The position numbers and the translations under genes are program-made. The notes beneath the pieces are model-generated. The model saw only the letters and a list, made by a program, of their open reading frames with translations. It searched no databases and had not been told where the DNA came from. This document shows, piece after piece, positions 9,255 to 12,104 of a stretch of DNA of 64,000 bases. Each line of letters opens with the position of its first letter. Position 1 is the first letter of the stretch. The DNA comes from Abditibacterium sp. (GTDB taxonomy: Bacteria > Armatimonadota > Abditibacteriia > Abditibacteriales > Abditibacteriaceae), in the NCBI GenBank assembly GCA_965199495.1, contig CBDASK010000003.1:3712001-3776000 (forward strand), written 5' to 3'.

Positions 9255-9400
9255 AGGCGAATAAATTCGCAGCCACAATTAGGTGTCGGCCTGCGCCGAC
9301 ACGTCGCAACATGAACGAAGCAAAACGGCTCTTCGTTTAGTGTGTTCTCTTCGTGTCGGCGCAGGCCGACACCTAATTATGGCTGCGAATTTATTCGCCT
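9255..9400. repeat. REP-doublet (REPIN-like) inverted repeat upstream of Y1 transposase
   Basis: Arm AGGCGAATAAATTCGCAGCCACAATTAGGTGTCGGCCTGCGCCGACACG and its near-perfect reverse complement; each arm holds two small hairpins. Confidence 0.85.
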
Positions 9401-9410
9401 TTCTGCGCGA

Positions 9411-9419
9411 TGCTATAAT
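9411..9419 (+). promoter_or_regulatory. Extended -10 promoter element upstream of transposase
   Basis: TGCTATAAT (TGnTATAAT) about 30 nt before ATG 9449. Confidence 0.55.
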
Positions 9420-9448
9420 TCAACTCGTCCCCATTTCAAATTCAACTT

Positions 9449-9901
9449 ATGCCCAACACCAACAGGCGTCTCGTTCGCGGCGACAAAATTGAGATTTACG
9501 TTCACTTCATCTGGACGACTTTCGACCGGCAAGAATGGATCGCGCCTCATCTGGAGGCCGAACTCTTTCCGCTTATCAACGCGATGGGCCAGCGTCATGG
9601 TTGCAAAACGTTGGCGATTAACGGTGTCGAAGATCATCTGCATTGGCTGGTCAAGTATTCTTCCACCACGCTGACCTGCGATGTGGCCAAAGATTCCAAA
9701 GGCGCTTCTTCCAAATGGATGGGCGAGCAATTCGAATCGTTCAAGTGGCGCCCGACTTATGCGGCCTTTTCGGTCTCGCGCTGGAATGTGCGCAAAATCA
9801 TGAATTATATCGCGCGCCAGAAAGAACATCACGCTAATGGCACGACCGATAAACGGCTGGAAAGCGAGGACGAGTGGCTGGAAATCGCGGATGGGGAGTA
9901 G
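9449..9901 (+). mobile_element. tnpA: IS200/IS605-superfamily Y1 (HUH) transposase, probably REP-associated (RAYT-like)
   Basis: YVHFIWTT, HUH motif DHLHWL, FKWRPTYAAFSVS, catalytic Tyr in YIARQKEHH; flanked on both sides by the same palindromes; no tnpB. Confidence 0.85.
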
Positions 9902-10007
9902 GCGAATAAATTCGCAGCCACAGTTAAGTGTCCACCTTCGTGGACACGGAAAATGGGTGTGTCGGCGAAGGCCGACACTTAACTGTGGCTGCGAATTTAT
10001 TCGCCTA
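9899..10007. repeat. REP-doublet (REPIN-like) inverted repeat downstream of Y1 transposase
   Basis: TAGGCGAATAAATTCGCAGCCACAGTTAAGTGTC...GACACTTAACTGTGGCTGCGAATTTATTCGCCTA; begins at the tnpA stop codon; same family as 9255-9400. Confidence 0.85.
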
Positions 10008-10017
10008 AACTAACCCC

Positions 10018-10662
10018 GTGAATTTATCGCTCTTTGCCGATGATGCAGCCACGCCGCCTGTATCGCCGCTAAATCTGCCCAAACATCTGCTCGACATCAA
10101 TACGATTTATCACGAGCCGAACGTTTTCGAGTTCGCGCGCGGCAGAGAAATCCGCGCGTGTTTTCCCGACTCCAATCTCATCGAAGTGCCTTCGCACTGG
10201 CAAATTCCCGAACTTCATGGCGACGCCGCAAACGATGCCGATTGGCTCGGCATCAAGCGCGAAACTTTGGTTCTGGGCGTGCGCAAGGCGATGAAAATGG
10301 AAGCCAACACGCGTTCGAGCGATTGGATCGCGCCCGCCGTGGCTAACGGTTGCGCCAGCGCGTGCGCGTATTGCGTGGCGGCGGGTACGCTTATTTCGAC
10401 GCCACAAGGCCAAGTTCCCGTCGAGCAAATCGAGGATGAAGCCGAAGTAATCGCTTTCGATAGTTCTTCGGGACAACTCGCAACAGCTCGCGTTTGCGGG
10501 TTGGCTTCGCGGGAAGTAAGCGAAGTTCTCGAAATTGATCTTGGCGACCGAGTGCTTCGTGTAACGGCAGAGCATCCGCTTTGGACGCGTAGAGGCTGGG
10601 TAAAAGCCGGAGATCTAACTCCAGACGATGAAGTTCTGTGTGATGAAAGCAGCACAGAGTAA
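10018..10662 (+). CDS. splB: Spore photoproduct lyase family radical SAM protein, N-extein (118 aa) fused to split intein N-part (96 aa, 10372-10659)
   Basis: SPL-like N-terminus (IEVPSHWQIPELHG, SSDWIAP, ANGCASACAY), then intein block A CVAAGTLISTPQG and block B LRVTAEHPLWT...GWVKAGDLTPDDEV, then a stop. Confidence 0.9.
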   Translation: MNLSLFADDAATPPVSPLNLPKHLLDINTIYHEPNVFEFARGREIRACFPDSNLIEVPSHWQIPELHGDAANDADWLGIKRETLVLGVRKAMKMEANTRSSDWIAPAVANGCASACAYCVAAGTLISTPQGQVPVEQIEDEAEVIAFDSSSGQLATARVCGLASREVSEVLEIDLGDRVLRVTAEHPLWTRRGWVKAGDLTPDDEVLCDESSTE

Positions 10663-11224
10663 TGCCGTTTTCGACATCGCACTTGTCATCGGGGAAGAGC
10701 GCGACAGGCAAAACGTGATGCGCTTGCAACTGCGTTTCGCTTCCGCAAATGCGGCAACAGCCGTCTCTCTCCAAAACGGCTCGCGCCCATTCTTTGCCAC
10801 TGCGCCGTTGTCGAAAGCCGCTTTGACTGCGTCCGTTGACATAATTGGGATTGCCCGCGCCACAATGCCGCTTCGCTATAATCGCCGCTTGAGCGCGCCG
10901 TCCCGCTCCGGCGCGCGAACACTGCGGGCAATAGCCGTAGCGGTTTTCATTGGTTTTGAACGGGGCGTCACACACGCGGCACCCCTGCCACTTGATAGTT
11001 GAGCGAGCAATGGTTCGGTCAATGGCAAACAAAACGCCTTCCCATCGGCGAACAGTGCGCGCATCGCGGCCCAGATAAAGCGCGGCCTGCCCGTAAGAAG
11101 CCACAACTTTGAACGGCATTGCTTCCATATTTGCTAAGTGTTGGCGGCACGTCGCGCAGCAAAACGCTTGAGGCGTCCGCTTGCCACACCAACCGCACGC
11201 CAGCGTGCCATTTGTCTGTCTCAT
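10391..11224 (-). CDS. Zinc-finger HNH endonuclease (putative homing endonuclease), antisense within the split-intein element
   Basis: VLERDGCCRICGS..LQAHHVLP..FPDDKCDVENGITLCCFHHTELH HNH core; N-terminal CxxC pairs; GAGNPNY motif before the HNH domain. Confidence 0.85.
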   Translation of the reverse strand: MRQTNGTLACGWCGKRTPQAFCCATCRQHLANMEAMPFKVVASYGQAALYLGRDARTVRRWEGVLFAIDRTIARSTIKWQGCRVCDAPFKTNENRYGYCPQCSRAGAGRRAQAAIIAKRHCGAGNPNYVNGRSQSGFRQRRSGKEWARAVLERDGCCRICGSETQLQAHHVLPVALFPDDKCDVENGITLCCFHHTELHRLELDLRLLPSLYASKADALPLHEALGRQDQFRELRLLPAKPTRKRELLRVVPKNYRKRLLRLHPRFARRELGLVASK

Positions 11225-12104
11225 GTTGAAATTCCGAAAAATTCAATCCATCCGCCGCGTGAGCGAACCACAAACCGTTTACAACTTTCATGTCCCCGGC
11301 CCGCAGTCGTATCTGGCCAATGGAATTGTAACCCATAACTGTTATGTCGCTCGTCGCAAAGGCCATGCTAACCCGATTACGACGTTCGTCAACATCGAAC
11401 AAATGACGAAATATCTGGCGCGTCACGCGATGCGTCAGGGCGAAAAAAGGGCAGCCACGCCCGCCGACGACAAATTATGGGTTTACGAAATTGGCTGCAA
11501 CTCCGACACTTCGATTGATGCGGCGATTTCGGATAACGTGCGCGATTTTGTCGAACTGTTTAGGACGTTGCCCAACGCCAAAGGCACTTTCGCCACCAAG
11601 TGGGTCAACCGCGCGATGTTCGATTACGACCCGCAACGCAAAACGCGCGTAAGGTTTTCCCTCATGCCCCAGCGCATGGCGAAGTTAGTTGACGTTCGCA
11701 CTTCGCCAATTAGCGAGCGCATCGCGGCGATGAACGATTTTTACGAAGCGGGCTACGAAGTCAATGTCAACTTTTCGCCGGTCGTCATCGAAGACGGTTG
11801 GTTGGAGGCTTACGACGAACTGTGGGACGAAATGAACGACGTTTTGCGGCCCGAAGTGAAAGCCGATTTGGTGGCCGAAGTGATTTTCCTGACGCATCAC
11901 GCCGGTTTGCACGAAGTCAATTTGCAGTGGCATCCGCGCGCCGAAGCCGTCTTGTGGCAACCCGCAATGCAGGAGCGCAAAATCTCGCAGGGCGGCGGTA
12001 TCAACGTGCGTTACAAAGTGAGTTTGAAGCAGCCTTTGGTCGCGCAGTTCGTGGCGCGAATGCGCGCTAAGTTGCCGGAGTGTCGCGTGCGTTACGCGTT
12101 TTGA
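11223..12104 (+). CDS. splB: Split intein C-part (39 aa, 11223-11339) fused to SPL-family C-extein (254 aa)
   Basis: MLKFRKIQSIRRVSEPQTVYNFHVPGPQSYLANGIVTHN|CYVARRKGHANPITTFVN...VYEIGCNSD...FATKWVN...RVRFSLMP...CRVRYAF; blocks F/G with terminal His-Asn and +1 Cys. Confidence 0.9.
   Translation: MLKFRKIQSIRRVSEPQTVYNFHVPGPQSYLANGIVTHNCYVARRKGHANPITTFVNIEQMTKYLARHAMRQGEKRAATPADDKLWVYEIGCNSDTSIDAAISDNVRDFVELFRTLPNAKGTFATKWVNRAMFDYDPQRKTRVRFSLMPQRMAKLVDVRTSPISERIAAMNDFYEAGYEVNVNFSPVVIEDGWLEAYDELWDEMNDVLRPEVKADLVAEVIFLTHHAGLHEVNLQWHPRAEAVLWQPAMQERKISQGGGINVRYKVSLKQPLVAQFVARMRAKLPECRVRYAF

Follow-up and report, generated by a model that had tools for sequence, protein, structure and literature searches.

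An SPL-like radical SAM gene divided by a candidate homing split intein with an antisense HNH nuclease gene

Results

In a 64,000-nt window of an Abditibacterium sp. contig (the window being the whole stretch of DNA analysed), a gene of the spore photoproduct lyase (SPL)-like radical SAM family is divided into two ORFs, each carrying one half of a predicted split intein. An intact gene for a putative HNH endonuclease lies antisense between the ORFs and across them. Very probably, this is a selfish, mobile homing element combining a split intein with an HNH nuclease ('fractured gene' type), whose host is rescued by trans-splicing. With less assurance, though still on the favourable side, we propose that it belongs to an undescribed group of chromosomal split inteins found across phyla. 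In this group, the antisense HNH gene would create the split, its active-site codons forming the IntN stop, with about one third of the HNH overprinted on the intein. A single insertion site would then show the whole life cycle: homing while split, recurrent restoration of contiguous mini-inteins and, outside cyanobacterial dnaE, an independent unlinked split-intein pair on a bacterial chromosome (G388).

Architecture of the locus

Insertion is at Tyr|Cys within CxxxCxxC, so that the element immediately precedes the third of the Fe-S cysteines (Table 1). An earlier note on this DNA had described an SPL-type gene split in two ORFs. Its coordinates, the 560-nt gap, the differing reading frames, the extein total of 372 aa and the charges of the halves (19 D/E against 7 K/R in the acidic IntN; 5 K/R against 1 E in the basic IntC) were all reproduced, as was its identification of the +1 residue with the third cysteine of CxxxCxxC. 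What it overlooked was the HNH gene in the gap and across IntN: the gap, with 10 stops between the halves, is coding, being filled by the antisense ORF. This ORF overlaps ORF1 by 272 nt, all within IntN; about 90 of the 96 IntN codons are dual-coding, and the last ~88 nuclease codons are the antisense of IntN.

Table 1. Features of the divided gene and its inserted element, in window coordinates.
Feature	Position	Strand	Remarks
N-extein, 118 aa, start of a TIGR03886 SPL-like radical SAM protein	10018..10371	+	putative GTG start; ends CASACAY, the first two Fe-S cysteines
ORF1	10018-10662	+	214 aa: 118-aa N-extein and 96-aa IntN
IntN, 96 aa and TAA	10372..10662	+	Cys1, block-B T-x-x-H, net acidic
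Whole element, 968 bp	10372..11339	.	syntenic empty alleles lack it, with exact junctions
Free-standing HNH endonuclease gene (predicted), 277 aa	10391..11224	-	intact; antisense ORF
HNH core	~10640-10756	-	C157xxC160, HH169-170, N186, C191, HH194-195
HNH flanking parts			Cys-rich N-terminal part; C-terminal tail helical, its coding sequence antisense to IntN
IntN stop TAA	10660..10662	+	reverse complement of the nuclease ATT-ACT (Ile188-Thr189) junction, NGITL motif
CATG palindrome	11222..11225	.	ATG starts of IntC (+) and HNH (-), divergent and overlapping
ORF2	11223-12104	+	293 aa: 39-aa IntC (to 11339) and 254-aa C-extein
IntC, 39 aa	11223..11339	+	net basic, block F (VYNFHV), terminal His-Asn
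C-extein, 254 aa	11340..12104	+	Cys +1 is the third Fe-S ligand; contains EIGCNSD

The CATG start arrangement is identical in G003, L054/L062, L087 and L088; in L055-L060 a short spacer keeps the IntC and HNH starts apart. No Shine-Dalgarno motif was found upstream of ATG 11223, and such motifs are uncommon in the host genome (89 of 631 starts against a background of 50 of 631). A promoter scan returned 2 sites against 1.1±1.1 in shuffles; of these, the one on the minus strand (11392-11365), which lies upstream of the HNH start, was no better than chance.

The split intein and its host protein

The earlier reading of the two parts as a natural split intein with charge-complementary halves is supported, and the split position is canonical. 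ORF1 matched SPL PF20903 and PT-HINT, while ORF2 matched SPL and, above its cut-off, intein_Cterm TIGR01443. The class-1 residues Cys1, TAEH and THN|C (Cys at +1) are present, and the catalytic residues are invariant in 12-row alignments. The halves, 96 and 39 aa long, are encoded in separate ORFs, with the break at the position canonical for an intein endonuclease; natural contiguous relatives measure 132-136 aa.

A survey of 68 N-half proteins showed the CxxxCxY|C junction in 67, all of which have TxxH and a net-acidic IntN; the IntN is exactly 96 aa long in 62. Source databases label these N-halves 'polymorphic toxin-type HINT domain-containing', 'Hint domain-containing' or hypothetical. 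The predicted IntN/IntC complex scored 0.67, against 0.00 for the best control, a value that may reflect likeness to solved split inteins; the mark for this score is reached by 116 of 157 solved pairs and 2 of 215 mismatched pairs. Contacts agreed between runs to at least 95%, with a partner pLDDT of at least 77.

The intact ortholog L005 and the contiguous-intein relative P0096 scored 544.3 and 523.7 bits against TIGR03886 (cut-off 437.55); the locus halves, taken singly, scored 126.6 and 399.1. Against spore photoproduct lyase proper (TIGR04070), L005 reached 122.7 bits, with a cut-off of 400. By these profile scores the host gene is an SPL-like TIGR03886 member and not spore photoproduct lyase proper, which narrows the SPL-family label of the earlier note. 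In the alignment to an intein-free homolog, which that note had proposed, the N-extein aligns with L005. L005 aligned to 4fhc pairs gcasacaycy with GCMGHCHYCY and eigcnsd with EAACTSD, and so has two features of SPL proper: CxxxCxxC with tyrosines on its flanks, and the catalytic cysteine downstream. Through this ortholog, EIGCNSD of the C-extein corresponds to the EAACTSD cysteine of the solved SPL, and the motifs are also present in the locus halves. The same cysteine is replaced by E or T in several family members. A role of the host protein in UV repair is presumptive. The host genome encodes a second SPL-like paralog, and the host gene looks dispensable.

The antisense HNH nuclease

The 277-aa ORF matched HNH_2 (PF13391) with an E-value of 1.7e-4 and 21.8 bits, against a cut-off of 21. 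Residues H169, N186, C191, H194 and H195 are invariant in 14 HNH sequences, and we take the residues of this ORF to fill the H-N-H and CxxC-CH zinc-site roles. The structural model (pLDDT 83.7) had HNH domains as its best, if middling, matches, the top one being the phage GVE2 HNH (Z 6.5, rmsd 4.5, 84 aligned); Foldseek with this model returned no match at E≤0.001. Profile, motif and model identify the ORF as a predicted HNH endonuclease with the beta-beta-alpha-metal fold of that class. A search for HNH relatives at E 1e-8 gave no match among 50,697 phage or 72,556 plasmid records.

In all 14 HNH-bearing loci that reach the IntN end, the IntN TAA is the reverse complement of NGITL codons. Since the Ile-Thr codons of the HNH form the IntN stop on the opposite strand, retention of the nuclease motif also maintains the split. 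The antisense nuclease would account for both the occurrence and the position of the break in the gene. HNH motifs and open frames are retained across hosts of 32-64% GC. The antisense frame over IntN is stop-free in 11 of 11 loci, and synonymous recoding gave a probability of 0-0.067 for zero stops in each.

Selection was compared over 28 non-independent pairs from 8 HNH-bearing loci, with pS 0.87 and pN 0.34 in the HNH-only part, 0.89 and 0.20 in IntC, and 0.83 and 0.27 in the C-extein. Third-position identity in the same 28 pairs was 0.72 in the IntN overlap, against 0.34-0.37 in the other four parts. IntC and both exteins are under purifying selection, and these sequence comparisons indicate that selection acts on both strands. 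The locus may offer a clean example of overprinting, in which the tail of a functional protein is read from the strand opposite a folded catalytic domain and both reading frames are under selection.

Two further candidates were ruled out: a free-standing HNH relative, L061, as a carrier of a decayed antisense IntN (22.5 against 20.9±1.7 in shuffles), and an SPL-like gene beside the HNH of L065 (no Pfam match).

Distribution and allele states

Genome G003 shares the split layout, as do 7 complete loci from metagenomes and 3 from viruses. Each of the 12 loci that carry an HNH and both halves is split, with the HNH antisense, and their IntN frame carries 7-20 stops. Protein clusters of the N-half number 68, against 6 of the contiguous form; named hosts are Abditibacteriota, cyanobacteria and Rubrobacter. 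Orthologs occur in 12 of 27 family genomes, 9 of them without an intein; none was found with this query in the other 15, several genomes being incomplete.

The earlier note had suggested looking for other allele states at the same site, and split, contiguous and empty ones were found, together with an unlinked one. Empty alleles, re-fused mini-inteins with antisense nuclease fossils, and unlinked halves (one genome, G388) all occur in close relatives. The empty allele L001 has 85% nt identity, with matching blocks flanking the element. Sequencing run X3 contains the joint 10371>11340, which is the empty junction, and its split-type, empty and re-fused contigs co-occur. Contigs from run X1, which may be the source of this DNA, tile positions 10102-11997 with 0 differing letters. 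The recurrence of the layout and these contigs confirm that the locus is not a product of chance or of a single assembly, the artefact that the earlier note had considered for the gap.

Some carriers look damaged: in L054 the C-extein is frameshifted, and G009 has lost ~70 N-extein residues in frame. A weak HNH match (E 0.002) located ~2 kb away from the C-half of G388 lies on the wrong strand for a relic and was set aside.

Mobility and fate of the element

The extein tree (31 rows) requires at least six state changes. Empty alleles are sisters of occupied ones, and a clade of empty alleles was rejected (p-AU 7e-7). In intein trees, built on 128 columns, a mini-intein clade was also rejected (p-AU 1.6e-8). 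The L060 intein nests among bacterial inteins, with an extein only 38-46% identical to theirs; its grouping with viral inteins was rejected (p-AU 0.0125). Antisense HNH-tail scores exceeded the null in G009 (155 vs 33±9), G263 (243 vs 37±10) and G388 (144 vs 35±10).

Synonymous divergence of the element between G000 and G003 roughly equals that of the exteins, so a recent jump between these two is not indicated. No co-conversion tract was seen around the insertion site in a comparison that was uninformative. Another possible source of the patchy distribution is conversion that returns occupied alleles to the empty state.

We infer expression, splicing and cleavage as follows. The two precursors would be made separately, IntN and IntC would pair, and class-1 chemistry (Cys1, TxxH, His-Asn, Cys+1) would join the exteins into a 372-aa enzyme whose Fe-S motif is whole again. 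Close to the insertion site, the HNH would cut or nick alleles that lack the intein, and the whole element would be copied in during repair. To judge from the fossils and trees, nuclease loss may be followed by re-fusion to a 132-136-aa mini-intein or, alternatively, by movement of the halves to unlinked loci.

A possible post-translational switch on UV repair was the suggestion of the earlier note; the intein would then be domesticated, and the repair enzyme would stay inactive until something triggers splicing. Because the +1 residue serves as an Fe-S ligand, the enzyme depends on splicing, and between G388 and G263 pN is well under pS in each separated half, where the nuclease is absent. 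However, selfish inteins are expected to insert at catalytic residues. With 9 of 12 orthologs empty, repeated re-fusion of the intein, and an enzyme that is an uncharacterised SPL-like family member with a paralog in the genome, we see no sign of a switch and regard one as highly improbable. Decay of a pseudogene or an assembly error, with halves that are not made or not joined, is scarcely credible: the damaged alleles and the 15 genomes without an ortholog by this query, several incomplete, would fit it, but IntC and both exteins are under purifying selection, catalytic residues are intact in 68 N-half clusters, and the locus is tiled by contigs without differences.

It is also conceivable, though unlikely, that the split intein works and the HNH is expressed, while the nuclease has ceased to promote whole-element homing. 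It would then have another target, such as contiguous mini-intein alleles, or another role, and inheritance would be mostly vertical with occasional conversion to empty. The conserved HNH motifs and open frames across hosts of widely differing GC content, the extein/intein conflict in L060, and the sister relation of empty and occupied alleles at 85% nt identity argue against this. Synonymous sites of the G000 and G003 elements are nevertheless saturated, extein and intein trees are concordant in some clades (G000/P0096, G388/G263 and P0100/P0101), and the model of Dassa 2009 (PMC2677866) puts the original nuclease target inside the intein.

Comparison with known systems

As a probable homing split-intein/HNH element, the locus most resembles the fractured genes of Dassa 2009 (PMC2677866; gp41-1, IMPDH-1, NrdJ-1, NrdA-2). 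Both have a gene broken at the canonical endonuclease site with a nuclease gene between the parts, charge-complementary halves and a host gene of DNA metabolism. In the fractured genes, however, the three coding regions share a strand, the nucleases belong to the GIY-YIG or Vsr-like types, coding regions overlap by 6-69 bp at the start of IntC, and the loci were judged phage-derived (PMC2677866). Here the nuclease is antisense in 12 of 12 complete loci and HNH by Pfam and structure; the 272-nt IntN overlap includes part of the HNH active-site motif, with the nuclease supplying the IntN stop; and the hosts are bacterial chromosomes. The antisense, overlapping HNH and the chromosomal hosts set the element apart from this type. 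The Dassa model predicts nuclease loss (step III) and then uncoupling of the halves (step IV) (PMC2677866). With empty, linked-split, re-fused and unlinked alleles in close relatives, this 2009 model of split-intein origin becomes testable at one site. Re-fusion to a mini-intein through nuclease loss is absent from the steps given in the Figure 5 legend of that paper; the contiguous mini-inteins here, which would descend from split ones, suggest that splitting is reversible.

Antisense endonucleases (LAGLIDADG, VSR-like) were described by Gosselin et al. (bioRxiv 10.1101/2025.01.02.630785), likewise opposite the intein, apparently still mobile and missed by annotation. Those inteins are described as full, with an in-frame HNH type and a second ORF that is typically found outside the splicing domain, whereas here the intein is split by the stops in its IntN frame and overlapped within IntN. 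Cyanobacterial split DnaE and the Nanoarchaeum equitans split Pol resemble G388 in having separate loci and no nuclease, and their fragments (IntN ~100-120, IntC ~35-40 aa) are of similar size to those here. Their hosts are essential polymerases, in contrast to the apparently dispensable host here. The dnaE split was traced to a single, irreversible event; at the present site linked, re-fused, unlinked and empty states coexist.

The earlier note had also put forward a candidate new split-intein pair. No description of this element, its chromosomal spread, re-fusion or dispersal was found in the literature searched, which covered few subscription journals. Inteins in SPL-related radical SAM proteins are nevertheless already known: PMC4760082 gives 48 SplB-class/COG1533 inteins in Actinobacteria, and NF038136 (Rv2578c-family) is another case. 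The host here is TIGR03886, while NF038136 is a model of a single 574-position protein. A search for the Rv2578c insertion site with NF038136 gave nothing over the cut-off in G000 and 14 controls; a weak match (E 0.0033) spanning the CxxxCxxC motif into the intein hints at the same site in that family. Annotation hides a large family here, which supplies dozens of Cys+1 split inteins as candidates for use in protein ligation, along with HNH nucleases that are candidates for homing.

Organisation of the split locus

An earlier note had described a spore-photoproduct-lyase (SPL) family gene broken by a split intein. The anatomy it gave (two ORFs, a 560-nt spacing, different reading frames, combined exteins of 372 aa and the charge counts of the halves) is all present in the sequence, and profile matches on ORF1 and ORF2 are consistent with a split intein in an SPL-like gene. 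The coding content of the gap had been missed: it holds an antisense HNH frame.

Coordinates of the split gene and the inserted element
Feature	Position	Strand	Size	Content
ORF1	10018-10662	+		118-aa SPL-like N-extein (ends CASACAY), then 96-aa IntN from 10372
HNH ORF	11224 to 10391	-	277 codons	Open frame; runs across the gap and into IntN for 272 nt
ORF2	11223-12104	+		39-aa IntC (ends THN), then 254-aa C-extein (starts CYVARRKG)
Element	10372-11339		968 bp	Single copy in its genome (G000)

The split locus is real. An assembly artefact, which the note had considered, is argued against by contigs of sequencing run X1, possibly the window's own source, which tile 10102-11997 with no differences, and more strongly by the recurrence of the layout in other genomes. 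The surrounding region is ordinary chromosomal DNA, syntenic at 85% nucleotide identity with L001, a locus titled Abditibacterium sp. that lacks exactly the stretch 10372-11339.

The proposed SPL-family membership holds in that the host is an SPL-like radical SAM protein of TIGR03886; it does not belong to TIGR04070. Aligned to a solved SPL, the Fe-S motif, its flanking tyrosines and a downstream cysteine are retained in this lineage, which makes repair of a DNA lesion plausible. A second SPL-like radical SAM gene in the same genome (L025, C3:1702867-1706691) is intein-free and nearer TIGR04070 (316 bits, short of the 400-bit cut-off); most genomes of the genus carry similar paralogs. Inverted repeats of ~49 nt, in two pairs, bracket an IS200-like/REP-associated tyrosine transposase gene (9449-9901) upstream of the split gene; across the genome this repeat has 19 matches, 18 of them 40 nt or longer. 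The whole block (9255-10006) is missing from L001 and may affect the promoter of the SPL-like gene, because it ends 12 nt upstream of the start codon.

The residues needed for splicing are in place and do not vary across alignments, and IntC is under purifying selection; the halves are predicted to be expressed and to splice. A model of the IntN-IntC complex scored 0.67 against 0.00 for the best control; the threshold was passed by 116 of 157 solved pairs and 2 of 215 mismatched pairs. In the model, contacts agree at 95% or more and partner pLDDT is at least 77. The model supports pairing of IntN and IntC, a result possibly owed to likeness to solved inteins. No Shine-Dalgarno motif was found upstream of ATG 11223; across the genome, these motifs show only slight enrichment. 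Long open frames elsewhere in the genome contain three further intein C-terminal ends (C3:1534439, 1537046 and 3582834).

An antisense HNH gene interlocked with IntN

The antisense ORF matches the HNH_2 profile only just above cut-off. Of 2070 candidates from a protein search, 24 proved to be relatives, and the top 12 share 51-93% identity over 72-97% of the query. An alignment of 14 rows shows no variation at C157, C160, H169, N186, C191, H194 or H195; the C-terminal tail is preserved in 13 of the rows. In an AlphaFold2 model (mean pLDDT 83.7, pTM 0.52) the tail is helical; HNH nucleases give the strongest structural matches (GVE2 HNH: Z 6.5, rmsd 4.5, 84 aligned), and HNH domains head the Foldseek list, which held no match at E<=0.001. 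We infer that the protein cleaves DNA and promotes homing.

Within the overlap, the third codon position of the intein is the second position of the nuclease, and silent intein changes therefore alter the nuclease. Eight HNH-bearing loci were compared in 28 pairs, which are not independent of each other (G000 and G003, another split genome, were also compared alone). The overlap has a third-position identity of 0.72, against 0.34-0.37 in the N-extein, HNH-only part, IntC and C-extein; pS is 0.87 and pN 0.34 in the HNH-only part. The antisense frame across IntN is free of stops in 11 of 11 loci, and under a synonymous recoding null it stays open with a probability of 0-0.067 per locus. The stop codon of IntN is formed by the reverse complement of the junction between the I/V and T/I codons of the nuclease motif N-G/N-I/V-T/I. 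This holds for every one of the 14 HNH-bearing loci (11 of them distinct) whose sequence extends to the end of IntN. Because the motif codons fix this stop, IntN has a length of exactly 96 aa in 62 of the 67 database fragments. The IntC and HNH start codons overlap in a single CATG in G000, G003, L054/L062, L087 and L088, and lie slightly apart in L055-L060.

Two AT-rich, near full-length HNH relatives (L061:251-961 and L065:227-970; 39% and 28% identity, respectively) lie on contigs without a match to intein or SPL. L061 also resembles the tail region and was negative in a relic test for decayed antisense IntN. The two may be free-standing forms.

Distribution and relation to known systems

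An ortholog with an E-value under 1e-90 is present in 12 of 27 family genomes: two split with HNH (G000, G003), one contiguous mini-intein (G009) and nine empty. Split, contiguous and empty alleles of the insertion site, the states named in the earlier note, all occur in the family. G025 has an ortholog fragment at a contig end; the remaining family genomes, with several genomes incomplete, yielded none with this query. Among 401 phylum genomes, close IntN matches occur in G000, G003, G009, G263 and G388, and 56 others match through distant Hint domains only. Metagenomes scanned with the HNH alignment yielded 33 loci (7 with the full layout, 3 cut by contig ends, 23 with HNH similarity only); a viral scan yielded 55 (3 with the layout, 2 of them distinct; 52 HNH only). 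Each of the 12 complete loci is split, and the DNA they lie in spans 32-64% GC. From protein collections, where sequences are known as proteins alone, come 68 N-halves among 97 candidates (named Abditibacteriota, Leptolyngbya, Oculatellaceae, Nodosilinea, Leptolyngbyaceae and Rubrobacter) and six contiguous forms among 210 candidates, the latter from a search weak for long proteins. In one protein (P0091, 119 aa) IntN follows a different CxxxCxxC context, SCNKSCSG/CF, which suggests entry into another radical SAM family.

In Dassa 2009 (PMC2677866), a fractured gene has its parts on one strand and a nuclease of the GIY-YIG or Vsr type, and fracture by HNH is suggested as possible too; the present element would work alike and differs in strand and nuclease type. 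The SplB inteins given in PMC4760082 number 48 and all come from Actinobacteria. No description of this element was found in the literature searched, which lay outside most subscription papers and included parts of Gosselin et al. (bioRxiv 10.1101/2025.01.02.630785), PMC12707363 and PMC7765530. The regulatory switch on repair proposed in the earlier note is not needed to account for the element.

Probable mobility

In a 31-row C-extein tree (excluding L058, L063 and L064, with C-extein cut or absent, and the redundant L089, L144 and L001; L054 cut at 200 aa), occupied and empty alleles are interleaved, with a minimum of six changes, gain and loss being indistinguishable in these counts. G000 groups with the empty G012 and mini-intein P0096 (100/100), and G003 with the empty G001 and G010 (100/97); a single clade of empty alleles is rejected (p-AU 7e-7). 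The extein of L060, 38-46% identical to all others compared, is placed next to viral exteins through a long-branch join flagged by the program. Its intein falls among bacterial inteins (100/98), and grouping with viral inteins is rejected (p-AU 0.0125). Recent movement is disfavoured by two observations: saturation between G000 and G003 is as high in IntC and the HNH-only part as in the exteins, and no co-conversion tract is evident at the insertion site. Locus L054 (2238-3838) has an IntN 80% identical to G000 and 68% to G003, with IntC, HNH and extein nearer G003 (89, 70 and 88%, respectively); it is possibly a mosaic.

Probably re-fused and unlinked alleles

A single clade of the eight contiguous mini-inteins is rejected (p-AU 1.6e-8; 20 rows, 128 columns). 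Both mini-inteins with DNA carry an antisense fossil of the nuclease tail, scoring far over the recoding null (G009, with three stops, 155 versus 33±9; G263, 243 versus 37±10). Its retention, with silent sites elsewhere saturated throughout the family, is most simply read as descent from HNH-bearing split forms via deletion and re-fusion, an order of events that we infer. Run X3, a lichen metagenome from a separate study, has contigs matching at 80% likeness, hence from related organisms: one covers the HNH part and one joins 10371 to 11340, an empty allele. In X3 and run X7, a contig links 10650 to 11226 through three additional bases that keep the frame, a re-fused allele. Damaged carriers are L054 (frameshift in the C-extein) and G009, where L006 (C167) has lost ~70 N-extein residues in frame, apparently between two EPN repeats, likely as a pseudogene or assembly slip.

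Genome G388, of another family (91% complete, 4% contamination, ~70 contigs), has its halves at least ~53 kb apart, judged by the lengths of the contigs, a state found in 1 of 42 genomes searched in that family. Its sole N-half match (C1:44,649-45,212) has no HNH and is followed by a gene with an S-layer domain and by mreB on the other strand; the C-half lies on C63 between pilM and an E1 dehydrogenase, and again on C32, a 99.3% duplicate. This duplication, at least 3.9 kb at 99.3% identity, is probably strain heterogeneity in the assembly. Against G263, pN is well under pS in all four parts (0.13/0.58, 0.08/0.48, 0.22/0.82 and 0.12/0.53), a signal spanning the time before and after separation. 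The G388 IntN retains a decaying antisense fossil (144 versus 35±10). Three N-halves with shorter IntN of 92-93 aa (P0072, whose end is like G388, P0092 and P0093) may represent further alleles without the nuclease, possibly unlinked ones.
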